Of a DNA stretch of 64,000 nt, positions 4,035 through 39,408 are shown one piece after another (positions within the stretch are counted from its first letter, which is position 1; the number at the start of each line of letters is the position of its first letter). The stretch is taken from NCBI GenBank assembly GCA_965232545.1, contig OZ246979.1, positions 5,734,077 through 5,798,076 on the forward strand, in the 5' to 3' direction. Both the position numbers and the translations under genes were made by a program. Source of the DNA: Candidatus Poribacteria bacterium. Lineage in GTDB: Bacteria; Poribacteria; WGA-4E; WGA-3G. The notes below the pieces were generated by a model. The model did not search any database. It had not been told where the DNA came from and worked only from the letters and a program-made list of their open reading frames with translations.

Positions 4035-5003
4035 ATGCAAGACCTCCAGGACTTGATAACACAGCAACCCTACACGAATCTCATCACTCCCAAACGGATT
4101 CTGTTTGCGGTTCTCGGTGTGATCGTCTTAGCCTGCTTAGCGACAAGTTTTTATATGGTCGAAGCAGACGAAATCGCTGTCGTCCTGATGTTCGGTAAAT
4201 CTGTCCGACAAGCCGAACCGGGACTCCATTTCAAATTACCCCTCGGTATTGAGAGAGCCATTAGCGTGCCCGTCCGGAAAGTCTTCAAAGAGGAATTCGG
4301 TTTTCGGACGCTGAGAGCCGGGGTTCGGACGCAGTATGACACCCGCGATTATGCCGACGAGTCTTTATTACTAACCGGTGATCTAAGCATCGCCGATGTC
4401 GAGTGGGTGGTCCAGTATAAGGTTAAAGATCCGAAAAATTTTCTGTTTTCTGTCAGAAATCCAAGACAGGCTTTACGCGACCTCTCGGAATCCGTGATGA
4501 GCCGGATCATTGGCGACAGGACTGTCACTGAAGTGCTAACCGTCGGGCGTATTGAGATCGCCGCGGAGGTTGAAAAACATCTGCAAGAATTACTGGATCT
4601 CTACCAGACCGGATTAGATGTCGCAACGGTAACCTTGCAGGATGTGAATCCACCAGAAGCCGTGAAGTCCGCCTTTAACGCCGTCAATGAGGCGAAGCAG
4701 GAGAAAGAACGGTTAATCAACAATGCATGGCGCGATTACAACCAATCTGTCCCGAAAGCCAAAGGTGTGGCGATACAGCGGATTTCGGAAGCACAGGGTT
4801 ACGCGCTGAAACGCGTTAACGAGGCGCAAGGCGATGCAGATCGGTTCAAATCGATTCGCACGGAATATCAAAAAGCGAAAGAGGTTACCCGGCGCCGACT
4901 CTATCTCGAAGCGATGCGAGAGGTGTTACCGCAGGTGAAAGAGATTTATATCATTGACGGTAACGCCACCGCACCTATCCCACTTTTGCAACTCAAGGAA
5001 TAA
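4035..5003 (+). CDS. hflK: FtsH protease modulator HflK (SPFH/band-7)
   Basis: N-terminal transmembrane segment plus an SPFH domain, immediately followed by hflC. Confidence 0.85.
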   Translation: MQDLQDLITQQPYTNLITPKRILFAVLGVIVLACLATSFYMVEADEIAVVLMFGKSVRQAEPGLHFKLPLGIERAISVPVRKVFKEEFGFRTLRAGVRTQYDTRDYADESLLLTGDLSIADVEWVVQYKVKDPKNFLFSVRNPRQALRDLSESVMSRIIGDRTVTEVLTVGRIEIAAEVEKHLQELLDLYQTGLDVATVTLQDVNPPEAVKSAFNAVNEAKQEKERLINNAWRDYNQSVPKAKGVAIQRISEAQGYALKRVNEAQGDADRFKSIRTEYQKAKEVTRRRLYLEAMREVLPQVKEIYIIDGNATAPIPLLQLKE

Positions 5004-5248: not shown

Positions 5249-6211
5249 ATGAAATCGAAAACAGTTCTTATACCCTTGATTGTTATTGCAGTTGTGGTGC
5301 TGCTAATTGTATCCGGTGTGTTCTATACCGTCCATGAAGGTGAACAGATCGTAATTACCGAATTCGGTCGCCCTATTGGTCAGCCCATTGTCACTGCGGG
5401 TTTGAAAATAAAAACACCCTTTATTCAGCAGGTACACCGCTTTGAAAAGCGCGTGCTTGAATGGGATGGATCCGCTAACCAGATCCCGACAAAAGACAAG
5501 CGATTCATCTGGTTGGATACCACAGCGCGGTGGCGTATTAAAGACGCTCTCAAATTCTATCAAGCACTCGGAACCGAACAGTTCGCACAATCTCGGTTGG
5601 ATGACATTATTGACTCCGCAGCGCGGGATTTAGTGACAGCACAACTCTTGATTGAAGTCGTGCGGGATTCAAATCGGGTGTTAAGTCTCGATCTGGAAGT
5701 CCTTGATGGTGAGGAGGGACAAACCGGTGAACCGTTGGAAGAGATTCAGATCGGTCGGGAACGGATTACACGTATGATCCTTGAGAAGGTCCAAGAGACC
5801 GTTCCACAATTCGGCATTGAACTCGTCGATGTTCAGATAAAACGGATTAACTATGTAGACGAGGTCCGCAAGAAAGTCTTTGACCAAATGATTTCGGAAC
5901 GGCAACGGATCTCTGAGAAATATAAATCCGAGGGGGCAGGCGAAGCCGCTGACATCATGGGACAGAAGCAGAAGGAGTTAGAGCGGATCCAATCTGAAGC
6001 GTATAAGGAAGCCGAGCAGCTTAAAGGTGACGCAGATGCGCAAGCCATTCAGATTTACGCCGAAGCACACGGTCAAGACCCAGAGTTTTACGCCTTTCTC
6101 CAGACGCTTGAAACCTATCGTCAGACGACCGGCGAGAGCACGAAACTCATCTTAACAACGGATAGCGACCTCTATCGGTATCTCAAAAGCAGTGAACCGC
6201 TCCGACGTTGA
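5249..6211 (+). CDS. hflC: FtsH protease modulator HflC
   Basis: N-terminal TM segment, band-7 domain, and the conserved hflK-hflC gene order. Confidence 0.85.
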   Translation: MKSKTVLIPLIVIAVVVLLIVSGVFYTVHEGEQIVITEFGRPIGQPIVTAGLKIKTPFIQQVHRFEKRVLEWDGSANQIPTKDKRFIWLDTTARWRIKDALKFYQALGTEQFAQSRLDDIIDSAARDLVTAQLLIEVVRDSNRVLSLDLEVLDGEEGQTGEPLEEIQIGRERITRMILEKVQETVPQFGIELVDVQIKRINYVDEVRKKVFDQMISERQRISEKYKSEGAGEAADIMGQKQKELERIQSEAYKEAEQLKGDADAQAIQIYAEAHGQDPEFYAFLQTLETYRQTTGESTKLILTTDSDLYRYLKSSEPLRR

Positions 6212-7578: not shown

Positions 7579-9468
7579 GTGAAGCGTCAACTCTCTCCTC
7601 TCAGTTTAAAAGCCGTTTGCATCGGACTCCTGCTGATTCCAGCGAATGCGATGTGGCAGATGATGGGGTTACGCTGGGACATCGCGCACATGTCGATGAT
7701 CTCACTGCTCTATAACACGATCACGCTCCTGTTCGTGCTGACAATCATCAATCGCTTCGCGAAAAAAGTCTCGCCGCAATTCTCTCTTTCCACTGCCGAA
7801 CTCCTGACGATCTATGTAATGTTGTGCCTCTCGACCGCTATCGGTGGGCACATGTGCGTGCAGATCCTCCTCCCGATTATCAGTTACGCATTCGCCTATG
7901 CATCGCCAGAGAACGATTGGCAGTCCCTGTTTTGGCACTATGTCCCGTCATGGGCATCCGTCACCGATAAGCGAGGACTCGCAAACTTTTTCGATGGTGG
8001 CTCTACGTTCTACCCGCACCTTGAGGCATGGAGCACCCCGTTGTTATGGTGGGGACTCTTTCTCGCCGCACTGTTTTCGGTCATGCTCAGTATCAACTTC
8101 ATCTTCCGAAGGCAGTGGACCGAAAATGAGAAGTTGAGTTATCCACTGATCCAGTTGCCGTTGGCGATGGCGAATCCGAGGAGCGGGTTCTTCCGTAGCA
8201 AGGCGATGTGGATCGGGTTCGGAGTTGCGGCTGCTATTGATCTCCTCAACGGGGTGAATTACCTGTTCCCACAGGTGCCACGACTCAGTGGTATCCGCGC
8301 GTATGACATCGCCGACTTCTTTACCGTCCGTCCATGGAACGCCATTACGTGGTTCCCCATCGGTATCTATCCATTCGCTGTTGGATTGGCGTTTTTTATG
8401 CCGTTGGAGTTGTCGTTTTCGTGTTGGTTCTTTTACCTATATTGGCAGGCGTTCCGCGTATTGGGAAGTGCCGTCGGATTGACAGCACCGTTTCCGTATG
8501 CCGAGGAACAATCTTTCGGAGCATATATCGGTATCGGTCTGGTTGCGGTGTGGAGTGCGCGTCGCTACTTGACGCAAGTGCTCCGTAGGCTGTTTGGCGC
8601 GCGATCTACACTTGATGACGGAGATGAACCGATCTCTTACCGTGCCGCGGTGACATGGATGTTGCTGAGTATGGTATTCCTTGTTGTTTTCTGTTACAAA
8701 CTTGGGATGTCGTTGTGGGTCATTGCGACCTTTTTTGGGTTGTTCTTCGGGTTAGCGACAGGGATTACGCGGATGCGTGCCGAACTCGGATCACCCGTTC
8801 ACGACCAGCATTATGCCGGTCCCGACAGGATGATGTATTCGGTCTTCGGCGCGAAACGGCTCGGTGCGAGTAATCTGACGGGGTTGGCGTATCTCTACTT
8901 TTTCAATCGTGCCTACGATTGCCTGTTGATGCCGCACCATCTTGAGGGGTTGAAGATAGCCGAGCGTGCCGACATCGAAAACAAGACCTTCGCGAAGGCG
9001 GTCATCATCGCTATCGGTGTGAGTATCGTTGCGACGATCTGGGCATATCTACACGTCTCATATCAGGACGGTGTCTATACGGCATGGGCAGGCAGAGAGA
9101 CTTTCAGTCGGCTCGGTAGACGACTCGTCCAACCCGCGGGTCCCGATACCGCAGTGCTGAGCGCAGTCAGTGTGGGGACGGTTATGGCGATTCTCTTGGC
9201 TTTTTTCCGTAGTCGGTGGATGTGGATGCCATTCCATCCAGCGGGTTACGCCGTTACCAGCACCTTCACGATGAATTTCTTCTGGTTTTCGCTCCTCGTG
9301 AGTTTCATCTTGAAATGGATTATTACCAGACATGGCGGCATCGGCGGTTTTCGGAGGGCGGCACCTTTTTTCCTCGGTCTCGTGTTGGGTGAATTCGTCG
9401 TGACGACCTTCTGGGGCACCGTGGCGATTCTATTCCGTGTGGAGACCTATATTACGATCAATTTGTAA
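7579..9468 (+). CDS. Large polytopic membrane protein, uncharacterised family (paralog of 37489-39408)
   Basis: 629 aa, at least 12 predicted TM helices. About 45% identity to the 639-aa protein at 37489. Shared motifs include MPHHLEGLK and RAAPFFLGLVLGEF. The GTG start is uncertain. Confidence 0.6.
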   Translation: MKRQLSPLSLKAVCIGLLLIPANAMWQMMGLRWDIAHMSMISLLYNTITLLFVLTIINRFAKKVSPQFSLSTAELLTIYVMLCLSTAIGGHMCVQILLPIISYAFAYASPENDWQSLFWHYVPSWASVTDKRGLANFFDGGSTFYPHLEAWSTPLLWWGLFLAALFSVMLSINFIFRRQWTENEKLSYPLIQLPLAMANPRSGFFRSKAMWIGFGVAAAIDLLNGVNYLFPQVPRLSGIRAYDIADFFTVRPWNAITWFPIGIYPFAVGLAFFMPLELSFSCWFFYLYWQAFRVLGSAVGLTAPFPYAEEQSFGAYIGIGLVAVWSARRYLTQVLRRLFGARSTLDDGDEPISYRAAVTWMLLSMVFLVVFCYKLGMSLWVIATFFGLFFGLATGITRMRAELGSPVHDQHYAGPDRMMYSVFGAKRLGASNLTGLAYLYFFNRAYDCLLMPHHLEGLKIAERADIENKTFAKAVIIAIGVSIVATIWAYLHVSYQDGVYTAWAGRETFSRLGRRLVQPAGPDTAVLSAVSVGTVMAILLAFFRSRWMWMPFHPAGYAVTSTFTMNFFWFSLLVSFILKWIITRHGGIGGFRRAAPFFLGLVLGEFVVTTFWGTVAILFRVETYITINL

Positions 9469-9676
9469 AACTTCCCCTGCTGGCGAGGTTTCCTAACCTC
9501 ACCTATGAAGTAAACGTAGGAAGGATCTCTGAATCCCGATTACTGATGCCTAATCCTGAAAATCCTGATTCAGACTATGAATACCTACGTTACCCGATTA
9601 AATTCCTAATCTTCATTAGGGGTGTTATGTTTATAAATAGATGGCAACTTGCGTTATTATAGGACTTGGAGGTGAT

Positions 9677-10219
9677 ATGAAAGTCTTGGTCGGTTCCGAA
9701 AATCCAGTGAAAATTCAGAGCGTTCGGGACGGTTTTCTAACATTTTTTGAACATGTAGAGGTCGAAGGTATAAATGTTGATACAGGTGTTGCTGACCAGC
9801 CTATGAATGATGAGACATTTGAGGGTGCCAAACATCGCGCCGAGAACGTTAAGCGAATAAACGATCAACAGAACCTCGGCGCGACGTTTTTTGTCGGAAT
9901 TGAGGGAGGCGTTCTTCAACTGCAGGAGAGATGGTTTAGTGTGAATGTCGTTTATATTTTAGATAACCACAATCGAGACAGTTTTGCCACAACAGGACTT
10001 TATGAATTGCCGGGTGCGATATCGGAAGAACTTCTGATTGGAAAAGGATTAGGACGTGCCATGGGTGAACTTGCCAATGATACCTACGCCGCACGCGAAC
10101 ATGGCACCGTTGGGTTTTTGACAAATGGTAAGATGGATAGGTTCCAAAATCAGGTCCAAGGCATAACTTTAGCATTAATCCCTTTTGTGAATGACACCCT
10201 TTATTTTCCTTCTTCCTAA
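9677..10219 (+). CDS. yjjX: Inosine/xanthosine triphosphatase (YjjX family non-canonical NTPase)
   Basis: MKVLVGSENPVKIQSV aligns with the E. coli YjjX N-terminus. GGAGGT RBS is 5 nt upstream of the ATG at 9677. The 12-codon extension to 9641 in the ORF track is unlikely. Confidence 0.7.
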   Translation: MKVLVGSENPVKIQSVRDGFLTFFEHVEVEGINVDTGVADQPMNDETFEGAKHRAENVKRINDQQNLGATFFVGIEGGVLQLQERWFSVNVVYILDNHNRDSFATTGLYELPGAISEELLIGKGLGRAMGELANDTYAAREHGTVGFLTNGKMDRFQNQVQGITLALIPFVNDTLYFPSS

Positions 10220-11460: not shown

Positions 11461-13422
<1,962 letters not shown>

Positions 13423-27159: not shown

Positions 27160-27168
27160 GAAGCAACA

Positions 27169-27263
27169 ACCTCGCCTCTTTCGTCCCCGCTGGCGAGGTG
27201 TTTTTGATAGGGTGTTTCTCTCGCCTCTTTAGAGCGTCCAAATAATTCTAATATCTACCATAG
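27169..27263 (+). repeat. REP/terminator-like hairpin element, expanded copy with a 21-nt box inserted in the loop
   Basis: GGCGAGG-TGTTTTTGATAGGGTGTTTCT-CTCGCC, then CTCTTTAGAGCGTCCAAATAATTCTAATATCTACCATAG. Confidence 0.65.
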
Positions 27264-27284
27264 TTGTCGGTGAGAGCCTCTTTA

Positions 27285-27433
27285 CTGATGGCTGAAAGCC
27301 GACTGCTGACCACTATTTGAGTACTTCCGAATCCCAAAGAAAGATTGTACCGTCGTCGCTACCGCTTGCGAGTGTGTTCCCATCTGGAGAGAACATCAAC
27401 ACACGAACAGCCGCTGATAACTGACTGCTATTC
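27285..27433 (+). repeat. Split heptamer array flanking a 93-bp relic of a WD40-repeat gene
   Basis: Heptamers at 27285-27321 and 27410-27433. The minus strand of 27320-27412 translates to AVRVLMFSPDGNTLASGSDDGTIFLWDSEVL with no stop. Confidence 0.55.
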
Positions 27434-27564
27434 GTATAAAAAAACTTGATTTCAATTTTCGTTTTGAGTATAATGTGTCAAAAAGGTCATCAAATTTTTA
27501 TTATTTTCTTTTTGACGTAATTTGCAAGTCGAAACCTATCATCGAAAATTTGAAGGGAAATATT

Positions 27565-28341: not shown

Positions 28342-28453
28342 ACAGGAATCTACACAAATCCGCGTCTAATAGCGGCGGCAGATCAAATAGGAACCCGCGA
28401 AAAATGTGGTAACGGAAACCTTAGTTGTCGTGGGTATATCACTTTGGAGCATC

Positions 28454-28732
28454 ATGAAGAACGTTGAACTTAAACAACAAGCGATTGCTTATATTGAGCG
28501 ACTTTCGACTGAAAAGCTTGAAGTCGTTCTTGACTACCTCGCTGCTCTTGAGAGTTCTGATCTTTGGGCGACTGAAGCGGAGTCGGAAGCACTAAAAAGT
28601 TCGGATAAGACGGAACCGCTCCTTGCATTGGCAGGGACGTTGGAATGTGACGAAGAAAATATCAGTGATCGCCACGATGAGTTGATCGGTGACGGGTTAC
28701 TGGCAGAATTATCGGGGCGTGTGCATGAATGA
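28454..28732 (+). CDS. Putative antitoxin (paralog of 21645-21896)
   Basis: MKNVELKQQAIAYIERLSTEKLEVVLDYL matches the 21645 protein's N-terminus. Stop overlaps the downstream PIN gene. Confidence 0.5.
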   Translation: MKNVELKQQAIAYIERLSTEKLEVVLDYLAALESSDLWATEAESEALKSSDKTEPLLALAGTLECDEENISDRHDELIGDGLLAELSGRVHE

Positions 28733-29138
28733 GGTCTTCGCCGATACCTCCGGATGGGCCTCTTTCCTTCGAGAGTAGGAACGCCATCATGTGAAGGCTG
28801 TTACCTTAATGACGCGGTGGGCAGCAGAAAATCGGCACGTTGTCACAACAAACTATGTGCTGGGTGAGCTCATCGCCCTCTGCGCGCGTTTGCGGATACC
28901 GCGTTCGAGAAGTGTTTCTTATATTCAGAGCATCCGCGCCGAGACTTGGGTCGAAATCGTACATATCGACGAGCGACTTGACGCACGAGCGTGGGAGTTA
29001 CTGGAAAACAGATTGGATAAGACGTGGAGCCTGGTTGACTGTGCAAGTTTTGTTGTCATGGAACACCGGGGCTTGACAGATGCGCTAACGACGGATCATC
29101 ACTTTGAACAAGCTGGCTTTGTCCGACTCCTTTCGTGA
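28725..29138 (+). pseudogene. VapC-like PIN toxin gene interrupted by an in-frame TAG at 28776-28778
   Basis: ATG at 28725 encodes MNEVFADTSGWASFLRE, a PIN N-terminus with the catalytic Asp. TAG follows, then the same frame continues ERHHVKAVTLMTR... to 29138. Confidence 0.55.
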
Positions 29139-29241
29139 TTTGAAAGACTTCTACTATTGTCTTAACCCAAGTTGTGACTTACAAAATTTTGGGTATGCAG
29201 TCCCTATTTTTAACGTAAGATGCTTTATTCTTCACAGTGCT

Positions 29242-29304
29242 TTGTAGCGTACCCTGTTCGTCTGTCCCATAATGGGAAACCCAATCTAACGGGTTATGCT
29301 ACAA
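29242..29304 (+). promoter_or_regulatory. Nested-hairpin element (13-bp outer stem TTGTAGCGTACCC/GGGTTATGCTACAA, inner CCCAT-A-ATGGG) in the DUF4351 gene leader
   Basis: Belongs to the TTGTAGCR...YGCTACAA inverted-repeat family also seen at 7309-7339 and 29807-29833. Confidence 0.4.
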
Positions 29305-29519
29305 GAGTGACAACTTGCGTTATTATCGTAAAATCCGAACAGCGATATGACGTTTCATATCCGCTTGCCGGATGGAGAAGCGATCCTCCATATGGAACGA
29401 CAACACAGCAAGCATCGGTAGATCAAGCGACACGGGGAACATTGTTATTTGCCCTCTCACTTTTCGGGAGTTTAGTACATCCACCAGAGCTTTTTCAAAA
29501 CCCTATATCGGAGGCAATC

Positions 29520-29774
29520 ATGCAAGAATCTCCTTTTTACCAACGCGTCATGCAACGCGGCATAGAACAAGGCATAGAACAAGGTATTGAACAAGGTATT
29601 GAACAAGGAGCAACACGCGCCACGCGCGAAGCTGTTCTCAAACTCCTGCGGCACCGATTTGGCGAAGTTCCCGAATCCATCACGAGCCAGATGACCGAAC
29701 TCCGCCATATTTCACAGTTAGAGGCGTTCTTTGAGAAGGTGATGAACGCAGAAACACTCGATGATATTCAATAG
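29520..29774 (+). CDS. DUF4351-like small protein (Rpn/YhgA-family C-terminal domain) with (IEQG)4 repeat
   Basis: MQESPFYQRVMQRGIEQGIEQGIEQGIEQG...LLRHRFGEVPE. GGAGG sits 8 nt upstream of the ATG at 29520. Four 12-bp DNA repeats at 29566-29616. The 100-codon upstream extension in the ORF track is rejected. Confidence 0.55.
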   Translation: MQESPFYQRVMQRGIEQGIEQGIEQGIEQGATRATREAVLKLLRHRFGEVPESITSQMTELRHISQLEAFFEKVMNAETLDDIQ

Positions 29775-29909
29775 TGAATCCTTTAGGACTTACGCGAGGC
29801 ACTCTTTTGTAGCATAACCTGTTAGGTTGTGCCACGAAACCATCCGCATTTCTTTCGAGCATCCCCATCTAACAATGCACGCTATGGTCAAAACTGCATA
29901 AGCCTTACG

Positions 29910-31232
29910 TTATTGACTCTCTGCTCTCTGTCGCATTTGATAGACAAACATATTCGTCATGAACCGGTAGACATCCGAGGAACGTCTCGCTGATAATGGC
30001 GCGCGGCTATCGATCTCTGCGGTCTCCATACTGCATAAATAATCGAGCGGGCAAAACACAACTGCCAGGCGATCTTTGCCGAACCGCCCTTGCACCGATA
30101 TCCCTTTTATATGTCTCCATTTGTTGTTTCCACCTTTATAATTCGTTCCCCAAAACGTCGAGCCCCCGACAGGTGTTCTCTCTAGCTTGAAATAGCATTG
30201 AAATACTTCATGTTGGGTGTTGAGCGTTGTCAATGGATACTCAGGGAATACCGTGCGTAACTCGGTTTCCACGAGCGTCGCGAACGATTTTTCGTTGCCA
30301 CCGTTACCACAATAGTCGAAAAACAGCATGCCGTTATAATCGAGAATGTATTTCCGAAGGGCTGCACGCTCAGCGTCACTAAACCCCGATCCCTGCGAAT
30401 TGCGTTCAGCTAACCGTTGGTAGGACACTGACATGGCTTGGTCGTGTCCTGTCATAATTATCAAGGGGGCCTCCATAATTTTTTTATTCGTTAGCGGTAA
30501 CGCGCCACCTTCGTAATCCATATCTGTGCTAATTGTCTTTACATGCTCCTGCAACCATTTGGTGAGAGAGGTAATAGCAGTTGGGTCTTGCCACCAATCG
30601 CTCATATCGTGCTTTAGACGGATAAGGCTAATGTGTCCACGCACAATGCCGTTTTCTTCATCAATGTGACTACCGAATTCGTCTCCAGTTCCGTCTCCAC
30701 TATTGTCGATGATATCTGATATCCCGCCACCGAATGCATCTTGTCCAGTGCTATCCAATTCCGTTATATTGCTAAGGTCATCTCCCGATATGCGATCTCC
30801 TGTCTTGATATTTGGTTCAATGCGCGTATCATCATGTTCACCGTTCTCTATTTCTATTGTCGGTGACTTGTTCTTAAGACTAACGTCGGGTGAAGCGGTA
30901 AGATTTGCTAACGTGAAGTCTGGGGGAGGCTCTACGCTCGATGGCACCACAGGTTTTGGGATTGGTGTTAATTTGGAGAATGGTTGTGCTGCTGCGTTCT
31001 GAATGGCTGCCCCAGTCTTGTTCTGTGGTATCTCTTGCACTCTCTGTCTCTGTCTCTGTTGTGTTGGTGAAACAAAATCCACAACGAAACTATCTTTTTC
31101 CTGCTCTACCACGGGTTTTAATAACCATATCGCGATTGCGATAATCGCGATGATATGTCCTCCTAAAGCGAGTAGCAGTGCCCTATTTCTTTGTTGTGTA
31201 GCGTAATACTTCTTAACCGTGCGGGTGTTCAT
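29910..31232 (-). CDS. Membrane-anchored protein with Pro/Gln-rich linker and C-terminal uncharacterised globular domain (possibly DUF4159-like)
   Basis: N-terminal TM (LLLALGGHIIAIIAIAIWLL) and a low-complexity linker. C-terminal domain has IIMTGH and DYCGNGG motifs. Last gene of the minus-strand cluster 37338-29910. Confidence 0.4.
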   Translation of the reverse strand: MNTRTVKKYYATQQRNRALLLALGGHIIAIIAIAIWLLKPVVEQEKDSFVVDFVSPTQQRQRQRVQEIPQNKTGAAIQNAAAQPFSKLTPIPKPVVPSSVEPPPDFTLANLTASPDVSLKNKSPTIEIENGEHDDTRIEPNIKTGDRISGDDLSNITELDSTGQDAFGGGISDIIDNSGDGTGDEFGSHIDEENGIVRGHISLIRLKHDMSDWWQDPTAITSLTKWLQEHVKTISTDMDYEGGALPLTNKKIMEAPLIIMTGHDQAMSVSYQRLAERNSQGSGFSDAERAALRKYILDYNGMLFFDYCGNGGNEKSFATLVETELRTVFPEYPLTTLNTQHEVFQCYFKLERTPVGGSTFWGTNYKGGNNKWRHIKGISVQGRFGKDRLAVVFCPLDYLCSMETAEIDSRAPLSARRSSDVYRFMTNMFVYQMRQRAESQ

Positions 31233-31330
31233 AGTGATGCCTGTATTGCCACTCGAATTGTGTGGTATTAGAAAGGATATGCTGAATGGGTATAGTGAAC
31301 TCCCTTGGTCTTATTTTTTTACCTTAGGAA

Positions 31331-33754
31331 CTATCGCACCTCGCTGAGCAGTGCCTTGAGATAATTTGACGGAACAGCGAAATTAAGATTTTGGGTGTGA
31401 GCCTCTTGGTAACCTGAGACGGAGATCCCTATAACCTTACCTTTCTCGTTTAAGACGGGACCACCACTGTTGCCGGGCGAGATGGGAGCATCAATCTGGA
31501 TGCGGGTTCCAGTCCCAAAGTCTCGTATGCTACTGACAATTCCTTTTGATACTGTTCCCTCTAAGCCTATGGGATTGCCAACAGTGTAGATAGTTTCACC
31601 AATCTCAATTTCATCACTGTTCTCAAGATCCAGGATTGGCGGATTTGGACCGGAGATCCTGAGAATAGCCAGATCCTGTTTTTCATCTATGGCGACAATC
31701 TCTTCAATAGTGTATCTTCTCTGGTCGCCAACGGACTTCGCGTAAAGTTGTTTTTGCCCTTTAATGACGTGATAGTTCGTTGCGACATAACCTATGTCTA
31801 TAAAAAATCCACTACCGATTGTGGTTTGTGCTTCTCTATTTCCTACTGTCACTGCCAGACGGACAGTCGCATTCAAAGCTAACTGGATAAAAGGTTTGGC
31901 TTTATGCGATTTCAGCCTATAGTCTGTTTTTTGTGGTCTCACCTGTTTTGCCATATCCCATCGGAGAATCGTGCCATCCTCGCTCCCGCTGACGAGGGTG
32001 CGCCCGTCTTTGGAAAATGCTAAAGCCGTAATTTTACGGGTGTGTTGTGTGAATATTCTTTTTCCCGTTCCTGCTGTCAGGTCATACAACCAAATTTCAC
32101 CGCTTGCGTCACCGACTGAGAGAAAACGTGTGTTGGGGGAAAATGTAAGAGCCTCAATTGCACGAGATTCCAGTCGGAAGCTTTTTATCTCCTCACCAAC
32201 GAGGGAATCCCAGTATCGTAGCGTCCTATTCTCTTCGCCACTCGCAAGAAAAGTGCCATCAACAGCGAATGTCAGTGTTGTAACAGTGCTCTCTGGTCCA
32301 CGGAACGTTTTTAGTTCGCGCCCCGTTGCAATATCTAACAGATGAATTTTACCGTCTAAACCGCCGCTTGCAAGTGTGGTGCCGGCAGGTGAGAACGCTA
32401 ACGCCGTAATCCCTTCGCTGTTCCCCGTGAGTATCGTCTTCAGTGTGCTATTATTCCAACTTGCATTATTGACAAAAAGTTTATTGACATCTGATAAGAA
32501 AATTTTACCGTCTTCAAGGCCACTGCTCGCAAGCGTCTTCCCGTCCCAAGAAAAGGCAGCCGCCGCTGTTAAACCCGTGTGTTCTCGGATGACTGACAGA
32601 ACAGTGCCTGTACCCGCATCCCATAAGCGGAGTTTACCGTCTAAGCCGGGGCCGCAAGCGTAGATACGGTTATCTGCTGTGTATGCCAATGCCTTAACCA
32701 TGCCGGTATGTCCGGTTAAGATGACACGCGGGGCCCTTCTCCTCATATCCCATAATCGGACAGTTCCATCAAAACTGGCGGTGGCAAGTGTGCGGCCATC
32801 CGGTGAAAACCTAACTTCATTGACTGAATCTCCGTGACCATCAAAGACTGAATCGGGGTTTTGGTCAAACGAGTTTACAAGATGATCGGCTGTTGTGTTC
32901 CAAACTCGAATTAATTTGTCTTCGCTTCCGCTCGCGAAGGTGTATTCGTCCGCATCTGATGCGGAGGGATTTGAGGTGAAAGCAACTGCATGGACGGGCG
33001 CACTGTGTCGCCTCGGAGGGGATAGGCTACCGCCAGAAGCAACGAGATCCCACAACCGAATTGTGCCATCTAAACTGGAACTAACGAGAATTCTGTCGTA
33101 ATGCAGGAAAATTACGCCTGAAACCAGTTCTGTATGCCCATTGAATTCGTAAATTTTCTCGCCAGTGCCTGTATCCCATATCCGAATCGTGCCATCTTTA
33201 CTGCCGCCGGCAAGCATACTGCTATCTGATGAGAATGCTATCGAAGAAACCGCAGAAGTATATCCAGGCAGAATCGCTCGGAGCTTGTTAGCGTGAACAT
33301 CCCATATCCGAATGGTGTTATCTGTTCCGCCACTGGCAACCATACTATCATCGTCTGAAAAGGCGATAGCGCGAATATGCCCGGTATGCCCTGGAAAAGC
33401 TCGCGCACTTCCGTTAAAGGTATTCCATAGATAGACAGTGCGGTCCTCATGTGCAGCAGCAAGGGTGCGCCCATCACTGGAATACGCGATTGCATTGGCA
33501 CCGCCCATCGGACCTCTTAGCAAGTCTCTTTCGTTCCCAGTACTGACATCATAAATCCAAATACCGATAGTGGTTGCAACGGCGAGTTCTCTACCGTCTG
33601 GCGAAAATAGAATATCTTTGACCCATCCTTTGCCAAAACGCGCTGTCGCCCCTTCCGGTAACTTAAAGTGTGTAGAACCTTGGGCAAAAACGTTCGGTAA
33701 AAATAGAATTGCGGTTAACAACGTCACGGTGACTAAAATAGATTTACGTCTCAT
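31331..33754 (-). CDS. Secreted WD40 beta-propeller repeat protein fused to a C-terminal trypsin-like (S1/HtrA-type) serine protease domain
   Basis: Signal peptide, about 12 WD40 repeats, then protease triad motifs TNYHV (His), DLAIL (Asp) and GNSGGP (Ser). Confidence 0.8.
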   Translation of the reverse strand: MRRKSILVTVTLLTAILFLPNVFAQGSTHFKLPEGATARFGKGWVKDILFSPDGRELAVATTIGIWIYDVSTGNERDLLRGPMGGANAIAYSSDGRTLAAAHEDRTVYLWNTFNGSARAFPGHTGHIRAIAFSDDDSMVASGGTDNTIRIWDVHANKLRAILPGYTSAVSSIAFSSDSSMLAGGSKDGTIRIWDTGTGEKIYEFNGHTELVSGVIFLHYDRILVSSSLDGTIRLWDLVASGGSLSPPRRHSAPVHAVAFTSNPSASDADEYTFASGSEDKLIRVWNTTADHLVNSFDQNPDSVFDGHGDSVNEVRFSPDGRTLATASFDGTVRLWDMRRRAPRVILTGHTGMVKALAYTADNRIYACGPGLDGKLRLWDAGTGTVLSVIREHTGLTAAAAFSWDGKTLASSGLEDGKIFLSDVNKLFVNNASWNNSTLKTILTGNSEGITALAFSPAGTTLASGGLDGKIHLLDIATGRELKTFRGPESTVTTLTFAVDGTFLASGEENRTLRYWDSLVGEEIKSFRLESRAIEALTFSPNTRFLSVGDASGEIWLYDLTAGTGKRIFTQHTRKITALAFSKDGRTLVSGSEDGTILRWDMAKQVRPQKTDYRLKSHKAKPFIQLALNATVRLAVTVGNREAQTTIGSGFFIDIGYVATNYHVIKGQKQLYAKSVGDQRRYTIEEIVAIDEKQDLAILRISGPNPPILDLENSDEIEIGETIYTVGNPIGLEGTVSKGIVSSIRDFGTGTRIQIDAPISPGNSGGPVLNEKGKVIGISVSGYQEAHTQNLNFAVPSNYLKALLSEVR

Positions 33755-33790
33755 CTAACATAACTCCTTTTGATCTGAAGTATATTCTAC

Positions 33791-35167
33791 TTACCGGTTT
33801 TGGTCGTTTTGTTCTCTGATAGTATTCAACAATCGACGCGCATCTCCATAACTTGGATCGATGTTTAAGGCCTTAAGGGCAGCCTCTTCCGCATAAGCAA
33901 GGTTGTGCAGGTTAAAATAAGCAACACCAAGATTGCAGTAAGCTTCTTTACACTGTGAATCAATACTGATAGCCCGTTCAAATTCAATAATAGCGTTGTC
34001 ATACTGGTTGTCGTCAAGATATGAAAGTCCTTGTTTGTAGTAATTCTTTTTTATCTCTGCTAACAGTTGGTGGGCGGGCTGATAGGTCGCATTGATGTGT
34101 AGTGCTTTTCTTGCCTTCTCCTCAGCGAGTTCCAATTCACCTCTATCAAAATGTTCACGTCCTTGGTTGGTGATTATCTCTTCTATCGGCGGCTCCGGAG
34201 GACGCGGTTTATCGGTCTTATACTCTTCTACCTGACGTTTAATTTTTTTCATAAGACGGAGAACTTCCTGATCCAAAGCAGCACGACTGCCAGCATATTC
34301 CTGATCGGCATTCTCAATGGTCTGAATCACCAATTGGCATTTAGATGTATCCTGATCTCTTTTTGCCCAGTCGAAGTATACCACTGACAACCCGTGATAT
34401 GCTTCAATAGTGTTCGAGGTATAAGCATAGTCATCAATGAGTTCTGCAAACGCATCAACGGATTGCTGGAACAGACCGGCTTTGTGATAGCATCTGCCTG
34501 CCCAATAGAGGGCATATACTGCAGTTTCAGCAGGTAGATGATTACTCGAGAAGGCTTCGTATTGTGTAGCTGCTTCTTTGAAACGTTTTTCAAAGCGAAG
34601 GGAGGTCGCCTCTGTGAGTGCTGCAAAATTCGGAGTGTTGATCTCTTCCGGTTCTGGCGGAGGTGGCGGCAGTGGATTTATAAAAGCGAGTGCTATTTGA
34701 TATTTTTGATTAATTTGCTCTCTGCGCCTCGCCTCCTCTGTCATCTCTAACGCACGTTTGTATTCTTCACTGGCGGCTTCATAATCCTCACGATCGAAAT
34801 AGATGTCTCCACTGTCAACATAGGAATCGGTCACATATCGACTTTCCGGAAAATTTACAATGACTTCCCTGTAGCGTTCAAGTGCTACATTTGAATTGCC
34901 TAACTGTTTCTCACATTGTGCTATTTTGTAGTGGATATATGCTTGGAACTCTGGAACAATTGTGTCTGTCTTTACACCGAACTTTTTTGATTCTTCCAGG
35001 GCTTTGTTATATCTTTCGAGTGCATCTTCGTACCGCTGCTCTTTGTACGATGTTTCCGCTTCTTCAAACACTTGTTTTACTTTTTTCGTGCTACCCAACA
35101 CAAATGGGGATAGCAGGGCAAGGACCAAAGCAATACCCCCGATGACTCCCCAGATTTTTTTGTCCAT
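33791..35167 (-). CDS. TPR-repeat protein with N-terminal membrane anchor
   Basis: N-terminal TM, multiple TPR units (AYCNLGVAYFNL.., ALERYREVI..), and a PPPPPEPEE linker. Confidence 0.7.
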   Translation of the reverse strand: MDKKIWGVIGGIALVLALLSPFVLGSTKKVKQVFEEAETSYKEQRYEDALERYNKALEESKKFGVKTDTIVPEFQAYIHYKIAQCEKQLGNSNVALERYREVIVNFPESRYVTDSYVDSGDIYFDREDYEAASEEYKRALEMTEEARRREQINQKYQIALAFINPLPPPPPEPEEINTPNFAALTEATSLRFEKRFKEAATQYEAFSSNHLPAETAVYALYWAGRCYHKAGLFQQSVDAFAELIDDYAYTSNTIEAYHGLSVVYFDWAKRDQDTSKCQLVIQTIENADQEYAGSRAALDQEVLRLMKKIKRQVEEYKTDKPRPPEPPIEEIITNQGREHFDRGELELAEEKARKALHINATYQPAHQLLAEIKKNYYKQGLSYLDDNQYDNAIIEFERAISIDSQCKEAYCNLGVAYFNLHNLAYAEEAALKALNIDPSYGDARRLLNTIREQNDQNR

Positions 35168-37338
35168 TACCGTCTCCTTACGCCTCGAATTTTGAGAGAA
35201 AAGTTTTTAGATGCGAGGAGGGTTCCATCCCTGTCTAACGCCTCAATTTTCAAGGATTGCGTTCGTGTGCGTGCATGATCAGATACAGTCATCTCTACAG
35301 CGACATCTTCTTTGCCGTTTTTCCCCAATTTTGAAATGATATCAGGCTGTTTGTACTCGATTCCAGTAATAAATGCCGGGTCAAACTTGATCCGGATATT
35401 ACGGGTTGTACCGCCCTGATTGCTGATGGTTAACCTGAGACGTGCGTCTTCACCCGCATCAAGAAACCCGTTCCTTGATGGTTCCTCTAAAGAGACTTCG
35501 ATTAAAATGATGGGTGGTATAGGTCGGAGCAGCGGGATTATACCTAACCTGATAGCGACAAACAAACACACCGCGATACTCCCGAAAACCGCGGCATATT
35601 TCAGAATTTTTTTTCGGGTTTTCCGATTTTTCTCCCTGTTTCTGGCGAACTGGATCACTTGAAGGAGTTCGCGGGCCGGCGGATGGGTTGGATTGCGCTT
35701 TAAGGCTTCTTCCGTGGCAGATTTGGCATCATCGAATGCTTCTATTTCCAGATACGCCTGTCCTAAACCGTAGTGTGCCTCTATCGAATCCGGATCTGCC
35801 TTTATCACCCTTTTGAATGCAGCCGCGGCTTGGTTATACTGCCTATTGTTGAGAAAAATGAGTCCGCGTTCTAAATCTTGTTTCGCATCCGGGGGGTCTG
35901 CTGACGGAGTACTTTCTGGCTTCGTCGGTGATGGTTGAGGGGGAGTAGGACGTGCTTGTTTTATAGCGTCCAAAAGTTGGCGCGCAGGTTGGGAATTAGC
36001 ATCAATCCTTAACGCTGTGTTCGCTGCGTTTTCTGCGTCATCAAGCCGTCCGGTTTCAAGGTAGACTTCGCCTAACCCCGTATGTGCTGACACGAAATTA
36101 GTCTCCAAGTCTATCGCCTTTTGAAACTCCGCGATTGCCTCCGTATACATTTTCGAGTTTTTGTAGGCAATACCGAGCTCATAATGCGTTTCCTGTCTCG
36201 GTTTCACAACTATCTGTTGATTTACTGGCTGCTCCGGTTCTGGAGGCGGGGTCGTGTGTGTCTCAGGCGGTGTGAAACTCGGATCTATGGCTTCTAAGAA
36301 AGAGAGTGCGGGTTGATAGTTCGGATCCAGTTTCAACGCATCCCTCGCGGCATCTCTTGCCTTTCCGAGTTCTTGCTGTCCGAGATAGGCGAGGGCAAGC
36401 GCATGGTGCGCGGCTTTGTAGCTGCGATCCAGAGTTATCGTCTTCTGGAGTGCATCTACAGCGCGGGAGTAGGTTTCCATCTTCAGATAGGTTAACCCGA
36501 GGTTATAGTGCGCAGTAGTGAAATCAGCATCGAGTGTTATGGCGTTCTGGAAGGTTGTAATGGCTTCGCTATAGCGTTCGTCGTTGAGATAGGTGATGCC
36601 CTTATTGTAGTGCGCTTGTTTTATCGAGTTTGCGAGTTCATGAGCACGTTGGTAGTTAGGGTCGAGTCTTAATGTCTCTGTGATAGCATGTGTCGCCGCT
36701 TCCAAATTACCTAATTCTCGGTGGGCACGGGCAAGGTTATAGTGGGTACGCTTGAGATTCGGAGCGATGACGATAGCACGCTCAAGATGTGGTATCGCTT
36801 TGTCGTAATGTCCCTGTTCGACGTAAGCGTATCCGAGGTTGTAGTGTGCATCGACGAGATCGGCATCTAAGGCGATCGCACTTTGTAACGCATCAATCGC
36901 CTCTTGATACGCTTTGAGTCTGATGTAGGCGGCACCGAGATGGGCATAGATATGCTTATTTTCAATATCGGAGACCTGTGAGTTGCCTTCCAAGTCTGCA
37001 TCAAAGGTGAGTGCTTTCTGGAACGTAGAAACGGCTTCTGTATACCGTTCAGTATTGAGATATTCTTTACCTTTATCGTAGTATGCTTGGGTGATGGTAT
37101 TGCAGAGTAGCCGTGCAGGTTGGTGGGTAGCATCGAGTTTTAATGCTGCTATGACAGAGGCACTGGCTTTCTCTAATTCGTCCTGTTCAAGATACGCTCG
37201 GCAGAGCGCGCAGTGAGCACCTATGAAATCCGCATCCAACTTAATGGCTGCTTCAAACTCAGGGACTGCTCTGTTGTATTGCCCCGCCTCCAGATAAGCG
37301 ATACCGAGGTTATAGTGTGCCTCTTTTATAGCGTTCAT
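35167..37338 (-). CDS. TPR-repeat protein (about 14 TPRs) with TM helix and C-terminal beta-rich domain
   Basis: Repeated AHYNLG.AY... TPR units, a TM segment (AAVFGSIAVCLFVAIRLGII) and a roughly 120-aa C-terminal domain. Start overlaps the stop of the downstream TPR gene. Confidence 0.7.
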   Translation of the reverse strand: MNAIKEAHYNLGIAYLEAGQYNRAVPEFEAAIKLDADFIGAHCALCRAYLEQDELEKASASVIAALKLDATHQPARLLCNTITQAYYDKGKEYLNTERYTEAVSTFQKALTFDADLEGNSQVSDIENKHIYAHLGAAYIRLKAYQEAIDALQSAIALDADLVDAHYNLGYAYVEQGHYDKAIPHLERAIVIAPNLKRTHYNLARAHRELGNLEAATHAITETLRLDPNYQRAHELANSIKQAHYNKGITYLNDERYSEAITTFQNAITLDADFTTAHYNLGLTYLKMETYSRAVDALQKTITLDRSYKAAHHALALAYLGQQELGKARDAARDALKLDPNYQPALSFLEAIDPSFTPPETHTTPPPEPEQPVNQQIVVKPRQETHYELGIAYKNSKMYTEAIAEFQKAIDLETNFVSAHTGLGEVYLETGRLDDAENAANTALRIDANSQPARQLLDAIKQARPTPPQPSPTKPESTPSADPPDAKQDLERGLIFLNNRQYNQAAAAFKRVIKADPDSIEAHYGLGQAYLEIEAFDDAKSATEEALKRNPTHPPARELLQVIQFARNREKNRKTRKKILKYAAVFGSIAVCLFVAIRLGIIPLLRPIPPIILIEVSLEEPSRNGFLDAGEDARLRLTISNQGGTTRNIRIKFDPAFITGIEYKQPDIISKLGKNGKEDVAVEMTVSDHARTRTQSLKIEALDRDGTLLASKNFSLKIRGVRRR

Positions 37339-37421
37339 TTACTTGGGAAAAAAGAAGATTATTTTCGGGTTAATTTTAGTGGCATTTTACCATATCCGCT
37401 TTAATGTTGCAAACAAAAATC

Positions 37422-37488: not shown

Positions 37489-39408
37489 TTGGGACTATCT
37501 ATGCAGCAACACTCGCCTGCCCCCTCTACGTCTCCTCATCAGAAAATCCGTTGGCGGATTATATGGCTTGGACTCGCGCTGATTCCCTTCAATAACTATT
37601 GGGTCTTCGCATCGCTGCGTTGGGATCAGGGGTTCCCGACAACGATGTCCCTCTTTTTCAATACCATCTTCGCACTCGCTGTCCTAATCGCCATCAATAC
37701 CATCCTGCATCGGTTCGCACCCCGCGCCGCACTCACTCAAGGCGAATTGTTGACGCTCTACGCAATGCTGTCTGTGGCATCCGCTATCTGTGGACACGAC
37801 CTGTTTGAGGTAATTATCACGAACATCGCCACGGTCGGTTGGCTGGCAACAGAGGAGAATGAGTGGGCGACGCTTTTTCATCGTTATCTTCCGGATTGGC
37901 TCGCCTTGACGGACAAGAATCGTTTGACCGTCTACTTTACAGGTGAGTCGAGCCTCTATCTGCGTCCGCACCTTGAGATGTGGTGGAAACCTGTGCTTGC
38001 GTGGAGCGGATTTATCATCGTCCTGCTGTTCACGACTTTTTGTATCAACGTGATGCTACGAAGACAGTGGATTGAAATTGAACGGCTCAGTTATCCGATT
38101 ATTGAGTTACCGTATCAGATGACAACCGCGCGTTTCTTCCGCTCAAAACCGTTGTGGGTCGGCATCATCCTCGCCGGTGGGATAGATGTCGTGAACGGAC
38201 TGCATTTTCTATTTCCAAGCTTTCCGGGACTCGGAGGTGAATTCTATGATTTGCATCCGTTGTTTACAACGAAACCGTGGAATGCCATCGGTTGGACACC
38301 CATCGTTTTCTTTCCATTCGTTGTCGGGATGGCGTATTTTATCCCGCTCGACCTCTCGTTTACGTTCTGGTTTTTCTATGTCTTCTGGAAATTTGAAATG
38401 ATCTTCGGGAGTATTGCTGGCTTGCAACGGATTCCAGGGTTCCCGTTCATCTTCGATCAGTCATTCGGGGTTTGTGTCGGTGTCCTTGGTATGGCGTTGT
38501 GGAGTGCGCGGGACCATTTGCGAAATGTTTTTAGGCAGGCATGGCATGGAGGCAGAAGAACCGAGTCCAACGAACCGATGTCCTATCGCACTGCCGTGTT
38601 AGGCTTAATCTGTGGGTTTCTGTTGCTCGCCGGTTTTTGGTGGGTTGCGGGGATGTCTTTTTGGGTAGCAATCCTCGTCTTTGCTATCCATCTGACGACA
38701 GTGACCGTGATTACGCGTATCCGTGCCGAACTGGGTCCGCCGATCCACGATCTACGTTCTATGGGACCCGATGTCTTACTCCCCAAGATGTTCGGAATGC
38801 GTAAACTCGGAGGACAGAATCTCGCGCTGTTTTCATTGATATTCTGTTTCAATCGTGCCTACCGAGGCAATACGATGCCGCACCAGTTAGAGGGCTTGAA
38901 ATTGGCGGAACGGTCGCGTAGTTCTACACGACGGATTGCCGTCGCGATGCTCCTCGCGATGGTATTAAGCCCCTTTGCGGCGTTTTGGGGCGCGCTTCAC
39001 CTCGGCTATGAGAGCGGTGCGATTGAGGTTTGGTCGGGGTCTGTGTTCAACCGTACCCAGAGTTGGCTGACGAACCCGATGCCTGTGGACATCCCGTCGT
39101 TAATCGCCATGGTTTACGGTCTTCTGTTCGCGTTCGGTCTGACGCTGGTTCGGCTCCGCTTTTTCTGGTGGCCCCTGTATCCGATAGGATATGCCATCTC
39201 TGGGACGTGGGCAGTGAATTTCTTCTGGTTTTCGGTTTTCATCAGTTATTTCGTCAAGTTAGCAATTCTGCGTTTCGGGGGTGTCCGGACGTTTCGGCGG
39301 GTCGCACCCTTCTTTTTGGGGCTAATTTTGGGCGAATTTTTGGTGGGGAGTGTCTGGGGACTGCTCGGTATTTTCCTTGAAAAGCCTATGTATCGGTTTA
39401 TTTGGTGA
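37489..39408 (+). CDS. Large polytopic membrane protein, paralog of 7579-9468
   Basis: 639 aa, co-linear similarity to the 7579 protein. Start may be the ATG at 37501. Confidence 0.6.
   Translation: MGLSMQQHSPAPSTSPHQKIRWRIIWLGLALIPFNNYWVFASLRWDQGFPTTMSLFFNTIFALAVLIAINTILHRFAPRAALTQGELLTLYAMLSVASAICGHDLFEVIITNIATVGWLATEENEWATLFHRYLPDWLALTDKNRLTVYFTGESSLYLRPHLEMWWKPVLAWSGFIIVLLFTTFCINVMLRRQWIEIERLSYPIIELPYQMTTARFFRSKPLWVGIILAGGIDVVNGLHFLFPSFPGLGGEFYDLHPLFTTKPWNAIGWTPIVFFPFVVGMAYFIPLDLSFTFWFFYVFWKFEMIFGSIAGLQRIPGFPFIFDQSFGVCVGVLGMALWSARDHLRNVFRQAWHGGRRTESNEPMSYRTAVLGLICGFLLLAGFWWVAGMSFWVAILVFAIHLTTVTVITRIRAELGPPIHDLRSMGPDVLLPKMFGMRKLGGQNLALFSLIFCFNRAYRGNTMPHQLEGLKLAERSRSSTRRIAVAMLLAMVLSPFAAFWGALHLGYESGAIEVWSGSVFNRTQSWLTNPMPVDIPSLIAMVYGLLFAFGLTLVRLRFFWWPLYPIGYAISGTWAVNFFWFSVFISYFVKLAILRFGGVRTFRRVAPFFLGLILGEFLVGSVWGLLGIFLEKPMYRFIW

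Follow-up and report, generated by a model that had tools for sequence, protein, structure and literature searches.

Three tetratricopeptide and WD40 genes form a probable, variable envelope-directed unit in Candidatus Poribacteria that here carries an HtrA-type protease domain

Poribacteria are abundant, uncultured sponge symbionts, and no mechanism has been assigned to their many “eukaryote-like” TPR and WD40 proteins. A testable case, a double propeller that is exported and has a TPR protein as its partner, is provided by a 64,000-nucleotide stretch of a Candidatus Poribacteria genome (assembly GCA_965232545.1, contig OZ246979.1, forward-strand positions 5,734,077 to 5,798,076), here called the window and numbered from its first base. 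Four consecutive minus-strand open reading frames (ORFs; 29910-37338) encode, in transcription order, two TPR proteins (TPR1 and TPR2), a fusion of WD40 propellers to a trypsin-like protease (WD40-protease), and a DUF4159 protein. An earlier note on this DNA, whose four co-directional ORFs and overlap at 35167 proved exact, described them as a single envelope-targeted module. Do the four genes belong together, and is the protease central to what they do? Based on a comparison of related loci, we conclude that the proposed four-gene module is better drawn as a variable trio with a neighboring gene. With a probability of roughly one half, TPR1, TPR2, and the WD40 gene constitute an accessory envelope unit, in which TPR2 and the double propeller are a jointly inherited periplasmic recognition pair, supplemented in this genome by an HtrA-type protease that lacks a PDZ domain, and TPR1 may be a membrane tether with a cytoplasmic scaffold. 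Judged from the genomes compared, this unit appears to be specific to Poribacteria and to lie beside an independently conserved DUF4159 membrane protein.

We scanned one genome per GTDB species for a DUF4159 motif, which yielded 38 loci, all from Poribacteria, and added 8 further loci from exact-protein lookups; all ORFs were mapped onto the domains of the window. The DUF4159 anchor biases such a survey, which we countered with lookups anchored on the WD40-protease (five loci). All homologues with a name are from Candidatus Poribacteria. Across the 43 related loci compared (L numbers below), the flanks are syntenic and the content of the cluster differs. The full set of four genes occurs in L001/L004, L002, L003, L005, L007, L009, L018, and L019, an arrangement with which the partial contigs L008 and L022-L024 agree and which recurs down to 52% identity. 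TPR2 and the WD40 gene were both present at 15 loci and both absent from 9, and neither was ever found alone (15:9:0). Both are missing from L010, L011, L016, L027, L034, and L035; in L015, L025, and L026, the pair is also missing and TPR1 is cut to about 250-290 amino acids (aa). A 28-aa relic of the TPR2 N terminus persists in L034, and TPR2 was therefore lost by deletion. In L027, a DNA methylase-HNH fusion gene (7907-9367) stands in place of TPR2 and WD40.

The DUF4159 gene follows a different pattern. It occurs without TPR2 or WD40 at 9 loci and in unrelated contexts in L030-L032; in L031, IS605 OrfB/TnpB-like genes (9331-9702 and 11782-12714) flank the relocated gene. Three of the five WD40-protease-anchored loci (L044, L045, and L046) place TPR1, TPR2, and the WD40-protease directly beside the FNR-like gene, and DUF4159 is absent from these loci. 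The trio persists there at 48-55% identity, and in L044 and L046 it is retained with DUF6785 and prephenate dehydrogenase (PDH) gone upstream. Since L044-L046 keep the trio without DUF4159, the trio is the conserved unit and DUF4159 a separable neighbor. The spacer between the WD40 and DUF4159 genes also widens to 0.5-1.1 kb in L009, L018, and L029.

The protease domain is likewise dispensable. It is missing from the propeller gene in 7 species (L006, L012, L013, L014, L017, L021, and L029), in which the reading frame ends no more than about 10 residues after the last blade; L006 lacks about 700 bp of window sequence (31252-31951). Because these species keep the propeller, proteolysis cannot be central to the unit. 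On a rough neighbor-joining tree, the states without the protease and without the pair are scattered, suggesting several independent losses. With genes and domains deleted in many lineages and a recognition block that seems to have been swapped by homologous recombination (see below), the locus is apparently non-essential. Thus, co-conservation, which the earlier note set as a test, holds for TPR1, TPR2, and WD40, with or without the protease, and fails for DUF4159 and for the protease itself: what stands of the module is a three-gene unit with a covarying TPR2 and WD40 pair, and what falls is DUF4159 as a member and the protease as an obligatory part.

Each of the four products has one hydrophobic segment, N-terminal or internal, and we predicted topology from hydropathy and the positive-inside rule. 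TPR1 lacks a signal peptide, and its orthologues begin at the same residue. About 13 TPRs, with two Pro-rich linkers, make up residues 1-580, followed by a transmembrane (TM) helix at residues 583-601. Eight lysine or arginine residues precede this helix, so the ∼580-aa TPR array is predicted to be cytoplasmic and the last ∼120 aa to lie outside. The best Pfam match to this outer domain, Ig_VWA7 (E = 0.012), is not significant. TPR2 is predicted to be extracytoplasmic beyond its N-terminal anchor or signal. The WD40-protease has a signal peptide (residues 1-24, ending in VFA before QG), 13 WD40 blades in two propellers (residues ∼36-600), and a protease domain (residues ∼621-807). An AlphaFold2 (AF2) monomer model based on an alignment of 32 orthologues (mean predicted local distance difference test score [pLDDT], 83.8; predicted template modeling score, 0.69) consists of 13 four-stranded blades followed by the protease domain. 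The best fold matches in the PDB are the two-propeller WD40 proteins 2ymu and 1nr0 (Aip1), and the same search returned no solved structure with both propellers and a protease part.

The catalytic residues His662, Asp694, and Ser763 align with those of Thermotoga maritima HtrA (1L1J) and are invariant in the 32 orthologues, and a distant clade retains the serine as GSSGG. HtrA/DegP proteases are the closest relatives of the domain in the PDB (1l1j; E = 2e-28). No PDZ family was among the Pfam matches, and the protein ends about 10 residues past the protease fold. The wider family is large: >1,100 of the 50%-identity representatives are related at E < 1e-30, and many of the closest (about 50% identical) are PDZ-less Trypsin_2 proteins in which protease domains stand in tandem or a TPR or WD40 array lies N- or C-terminal to the protease.

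The DUF4159 protein consists of the TM helix, a variable Pro/Gly-rich linker, and a highly conserved DUF4159 domain (residues 203-433) that scores 78.8 bits vs a gathering threshold of 25.9, which places it in the family; the bulk of the protein is predicted to be extracytoplasmic. A profile search of the PDB for its fold gave chance matches only, a lenient Pfam scan found no second family, and an AF2 model from 12 close sequences reached a pLDDT of 38.5 and was therefore not used for fold searches. We found nothing specific on DUF4159 in the literature, where the name appears in one paper, within a list only. Four Poribacteria loci hold only fragments of the domain (residues 252-437 in L037; pieces of 24-45 residues in L038-L040; match sites from 10001 onward), which suggests that DUF4159 is also decaying in some lineages.

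Most of this anatomy had been anticipated from the letters of the window and a list of its ORFs. The earlier description was largely accurate for the TM-anchored TPR protein, now supported by Pfam repeats and an N-terminal hydrophobic segment, for the fusion of a classical signal peptide and WD40 propeller to an S1 protease with an intact triad, for which Pfam identified both WD40 and Trypsin_2, and for the TM protein with a Pro-rich linker and globular domain. The TM helix of TPR1 was also correctly called; its repeat count of 14 was slightly high, the propeller count of about 12 blades was one short, and the “beta-domain” assigned to its C terminus corresponds to nothing stronger than the nonsignificant Ig-like match. 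The proposal that all products meet at the membrane or periplasm agrees with the topology predicted for TPR2, the WD40-protease, the DUF4159 protein, and the C-terminal domain of TPR1, and not with that of the TPR1 array. Coordinates are collected in Table 1.

Table 1. Positions of the genes, domains, and sites discussed in the text, in window numbering
Feature	Positions	Strand	Basis and remarks
WD40 relic: last blade and stop codon of a deleted exported WD40 paralogue	27331..27426	-	tblastn; translation reads ...FSPDGNTLASGSDDGTIFLWDSEVLK followed by the stop
DUF4159 protein, 440 aa	29910..31232	-	PF13709, E = 5e-22; TM helix 19-37 (N-in)
Exported WD40-protease, 807 aa	31331..33754	-	Pfam WD40, E = 2.7e-103 (10 passing stretches), and Trypsin_2, E = 4e-30
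Protease domain	31334..31894	-	Trypsin_2 at residues 647-777, E = 4e-30; catalytic codons within
Catalytic codons	His662, 31769-31771; Asp694, 31673-31675; Ser763, 31466-31468	-	Motifs TNYHV, DLAIL, and GNSGG aligned to 1L1J
Segment hyper-divergent vs L007	32064..35969	-	TPR1 from about residue 457, whole of TPR2, propellers to about residue 563
TPR2, 458 aa	33791..35167	-	Pfam TPR_2 and TPR_16; N-terminal signal or anchor, residues 5-23
TPR1, bitopic, 723 aa	35167..37338	-	Pfam TPR_1, E = 2.4e-75, 11 passing stretches
TPR1 extracytoplasmic C-terminal domain, residues 602-723	35170..35535	-	Fast-evolving; weak Ig-like hint only
Promoter-like site TTGCAA-17-TAAAAT with TG	37384..37413	-	Consensus scan only; upstream of TPR1
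DUF6785+DUF6784 membrane protein	37489..39408	+	Pfam; divergent from TPR1; conserved flank, 89-99% aa identity across Poribacteria

A further indication that TPR2 and the propellers belong together, besides their joint presence or absence, is the mosaic divergence of the locus. Compared with the near-identical genome L007 (OZ243935.1), nucleotide identity is 96.2% from 41390 down to 35969, ≤74% or undetectable from 35969 to 32064, 82-87% over 32064-29399 (last blade, protease, DUF4159, and DUF4351 gene), and 97.7% again from 28341. Synonymous divergence (dS) follows the same steps: 0.04-0.08 in DUF6785, PDH, cmk, and the FNR-like gene, 0.18 in the protease domain, 0.43 in the DUF4159 domain, and saturated in WD40, TPR2, and the TPR1 C terminus. 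Because dS is saturated in the block and low in the flanks, we infer that alleles were replaced by recombination, beyond fast protein evolution alone. L014 presents the reverse case, with distant flanks but a window-like block. The TPR1 C-terminal domain is 45% identical to that of L007 between flanks at 96-99%, and across orthologues its median pairwise identity is 46% vs 74% for the TPR part. Low dS also marks the protease segment (31334-31924) vs L003, L004, and L005, at 0.19-0.21 compared with 0.37-0.6 in the housekeeping flanks of the same pairs; this may reflect recent spread between lineages or extra constraint.

Pairwise identities of TPR2 and WD40 track each other (rho, 0.77) vs values of 0.08-0.40 for each with the flanks. 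DUF6785, the cytoplasmic TPR array, the protease domain, DUF4159, and the FNR-like gene form another group, with mutual rho values mostly of 0.5-0.8 (lowest, 0.42). The periplasmic domain of TPR1 correlates with no part above 0.26, except for the protease (0.56, from 36 pairs only). The ratio of nonsynonymous to synonymous divergence (dN/dS) is <1 in every part, and the genes are therefore functional; TPR2 (0.28-0.42), the DUF4159 linker (0.28-0.55), and the TPR1 C terminus (0.24-0.28) have the highest ratios.

Taken together, these features suggest how the unit might operate. TPR1 would contribute a cytoplasmic TPR scaffold, one TM helix, and a small, variable periplasmic domain, and TPR2 would be a membrane-anchored or secreted periplasmic TPR protein. 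The genes for TPR2 and the propellers behave as a single block in inheritance, loss, and replacement, on which ground the two proteins probably act jointly, and may physically interact, as a periplasmic or surface pair for protein recognition. Where the protease is present, the propellers would select or admit substrates in place of a PDZ domain, resulting in a propeller-targeted protease. TPR1 possibly tethers the pair to the inner membrane and links it to cytoplasmic partners, and any signaling role of the unit is likewise conjectural.

Several points weigh against this reading. The co-loss and codivergence of TPR2 and WD40 could merely reflect their adjacency in single deletion or recombination tracts, and the high abundance of TPR and WD40 genes in Poribacteria (PMC3909097) makes chance adjacency not negligible. 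The rho values are plain correlations of pairwise identity, uncorrected for kinship, and the tree from which losses were counted is based on two proteins at a recombining locus. The periplasmic domain of TPR1 follows neither TPR2 (rho, 0.26) nor WD40 (rho, 0.07), which argues against a three-way coevolving interface, and the absence of the protease domain from seven species limits any protease-based mechanism to some lineages. Cotranscription of the operon-like run is a prediction drawn only from gene spacing and a consensus scan.

If adjacency and abundance explained everything, the locus would be a hotspot at which lineage-expanded TPR and WD40 genes accumulate, duplicate, decay, and recombine as independent neighbors. 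The tandem exported WD40 genes found past the FNR-like gene in most genomes, with the deletion relic in the window, the frequent deletions, the split and truncated copies of TPR1, the inserted methylase-HNH gene of L027, and the abundance of such repeats in the phylum all fit this explanation. It does not predict the conserved start-stop overlap of TPR1 and TPR2, the strict co-presence or co-absence of TPR2 and WD40, the retention of the trio despite broken flanking synteny in L044 and L046, or purifying selection on all parts, and we therefore consider it unlikely, if to be taken seriously. A wider grouping, in which the DUF4159 protein joins the other three in one scaffolded module for regulated proteolysis or trans-envelope signaling, centered on the protease, has in its favor the single strand, the short junctions without a terminator-like site, four envelope-directed products, and the recurrence of the arrangement in the loci listed above. 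Set against the loci that have the trio without DUF4159 or DUF4159 without TPR2 and WD40, the seven species that lack the protease domain, the long WD40-DUF4159 spacers, and a second WD40-protease group that lacks these neighbors, such a module seems very improbable.

The WD40-protease and TPR2 could instead be secreted “eukaryote-like” effectors directed at proteins of the sponge host or of phages and not at the cell's own envelope, with allele turnover the trace of an arms race with host or viruses. Signal peptides are present, the exported recognition parts are those that are replaced or divergent while cytoplasmic parts and the protease are conserved, the related loci all come from Candidatus Poribacteria records of metagenome-assembled genomes, and host interaction has been postulated for such repeat proteins (PMC3909097). 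However, no secretion-system or outer membrane sorting signal was found in these proteins, which end after the last blade or the protease; the TPR2 anchor is likely uncleaved; dN/dS below 1 throughout gives no direct gene-level sign of positive selection; and the trio has been lost outright in many symbionts. We regard this explanation as decidedly doubtful. The recognition-pair reading can itself be extended, in a way that we consider speculative and rather improbable, to a polymorphic “recognition cassette” composed of the periplasmic end of TPR1, TPR2, and the propellers, which would occupy a fixed chromosomal site and be swapped among Poribacteria by homologous recombination, its breakpoints coinciding with domain borders and phages or the sponge host exerting frequency-dependent selection. 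The TPR array in the cytoplasm and the protease domain would then remain with the backbone, the protease as an optional effector, and the locus would correspond, for the envelope, to variable loci of the O-antigen or receptor type, with eukaryote-like repeat proteins as its building blocks.

The WD40 genes of this region extend beyond the trio. Most related genomes carry 1 to 5 tandem WD40 genes beyond the FNR-like gene, each encoding about 650-700 aa and lacking an extra C-terminal domain; all WD40 paralogues, tandem copies included, have a signal peptide and a shared N-terminal motif. At the same position, the window has an intergenic stretch (27160-27475) with the WD40 relic, which had been noticed at 27320-27412, is real, and now has the borders given in Table 1. 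Positions 27220-27411 match the 3′ end of an intact WD40 gene of L007 (14535-16553) at 84.5%. The window has thus lost its tandem WD40 array, with the last blade alone left. We also considered the tandem paralogues as silent donor cassettes and rejected this idea, having found no long or high-identity conversion tracts in 13 genomes.

Exported WD40-protease fusions are not tied to these neighbors. A second group (P0333, P0414, and P0431, the last named Poribacteria), with propellers about 33% and protease domains about 52% identical to those of the window, stands in unrelated neighborhoods that lack TPR and DUF4159 genes, which makes the fusion a recurring architecture. The existing database label for such proteins is “trypsin-like peptidase domain-containing protein,” and we found nothing specific on combined HtrA and WD40 architectures in the literature.

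The layout of the four genes is operon-like. The TPR2 start codon overlaps the TPR1 stop codon by one shared base, followed by gaps of 36 bp and 98 bp; the TPR1/TPR2 overlap recurs in L001/L004, L002, L003, L005, L007, L014, L018, and L019, and TPR2 and WD40 overlap in L005 and L006. The promoter-like site lies in the 150-bp divergent intergenic region common to TPR1 and the DUF6785 gene. A consensus scan found no such site directly 5′ of TPR2, the WD40-protease, or DUF4159, and a scan for terminator-like sites on the coding strand between the four genes found none. Neither Rfam nor tRNA scans found anything in the region. Housekeeping genes make up both flanks, with argininosuccinate lyase, pyrF, a sulfatase, and an FNR-like reductase in one and the DUF6785/6784 membrane protein, PDH, cmk, an acyltransferase, and ychF in the opposite one. 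The divergent membrane protein was earlier said to have a paralogue, and a 42%-identical DUF6785+DUF6784 protein is indeed encoded 28 kb away (7579-9468). Membership of the divergent protein in the TPR/WD40 unit is unsupported, given that the trio persists without it in L044 and L046. In L002, an IS605 OrfB/TnpB-like gene (2440-3438) lies beside DUF6785.

Other features of the window include a type I restriction enzyme R-subunit-like gene (742-3693; HSDR_N, ResIII, and SWI2/SNF2) followed by two adjacent SPFH/Band 7 genes (4035-5003 and 5249-6211). A possible toxin-antitoxin pair consists of a PIN-domain ORF (28791-29138) and a small ORF upstream of it (28406-28732); the 1.06-kb stretch that holds both (28342-29398) has no counterpart in the near-identical L007, yet is found in L005. 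Between the PIN and DUF4159 genes, most of a DUF4351 ORF (29220-29774) is bracketed by a 26-nucleotide inverted repeat (29282-29307 and 29804-29829; 88% complementary). This ORF and repeat, at the right edge of the divergent segment, may represent a small mobile or recombination-related element.

The most interesting aspect of the locus is that allele replacement is restricted to those recognition parts that are exported. Lineages without the protease, the pair, or DUF4159 provide natural knockouts, and the HtrA-type protease has propellers where canonical HtrAs carry PDZ domains. If the propellers direct the protease, this would be a new regulatory solution for the HtrA family; if allele turnover reflects selection, it would indicate molecules at a symbiont-host or symbiont-phage interface. 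If both conditions fail, what is left is an ordinary hotspot for the turnover of repeat proteins.

No known system matches the locus by NCBIfam scores, PADLOC, or context, in agreement with the earlier impression that it is not a described system. Tol-Pal is similar in that genes for a periplasmic propeller and a periplasmic TPR protein (TolB and CpoB/YbgF) are adjacent, beside inner-membrane-anchored partners. The propeller here is of the WD40 type and doubled; scores fall below those required (TolB, 26.8 vs 343 bits; YbgF, 49.9 and 78 vs 90.1 bits), and TolQ/R/A and Pal are missing from the vicinity. DUF4159 and TM-TPR proteins are frequent in Bat (aerotolerance) and MoxR-DUF58-VWA clusters, which the TM-anchored TPR proteins and DUF4159 protein of this locus resemble; none of MoxR, DUF58, or VWA was found among the 35 window ORFs scanned, and TPR_BatC_Lepto reached 86 vs 175 bits. 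Magnetosome proteins, a TPR protein (MamA) and two HtrA-like proteases with a TM helix (MamE and MamO), were rejected on similar grounds (MamA, 193 vs 200 bits as the sum of 5 repeated stretches; MamE, 88 vs 800; MamO, 45 vs 800). PADLOC, used to search for antiphage defense, gave domain-level matches only (RT-Protease_XI for the protease part and HEAT-ARM_XIII for the WD40 part), with no reverse transcriptase or NTPase, and the signal peptides disfavor a cytoplasmic defense sensor. Membrane-coat-like proteins of the Planctomycetes-Verrucomicrobia-Chlamydiae group are membrane associated and combine a propeller and then an alpha-solenoid in one polypeptide, a description from which this locus is set apart by its propeller and TPR solenoid being separate gene products.

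The trio does resemble the eukaryote-like repeat proteins of sponge symbionts (TPR, WD40, and ankyrin; PMC3909097) in its signal peptides and TM helices, lineage expansion, and phylum; these form a descriptive category without a mechanism, and the HtrA-type fusion, three-gene unit, and allele replacement are absent from that report. In propeller-gated peptidases (Tricorn, prolyl oligopeptidase, and DPP-IV), a beta-propeller is likewise combined with a serine peptidase, and by analogy the propellers here could select or admit substrates; those enzymes have an alpha/beta-hydrolase or Tricorn core vs the chymotrypsin fold of the WD40-protease, and we found no sequence relationship. With the HtrA/DegP/DegQ/DegS proteases (MEROPS S1C), it shares the chymotrypsin fold, the His-Asp-Ser triad in TNxHV, DLAhh, and GNSGGP motifs, and export by a signal peptide. 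It lacks the C-terminal PDZ domain, at least one of which regulates activity and binds substrate in HtrA/DegP, scores far under all cutoffs of the NCBIfam HtrA-type models (TIGR02037, 140.6 vs 416.2), and has a shorter loop preceding the IQxDA segment. HtrA/DegP proteases are built as trimer-based oligomers, and the model made here is of a single chain. Unlike HtrA, the WD40-protease carries a 600-aa tandem WD40 propeller N-terminal to the protease.

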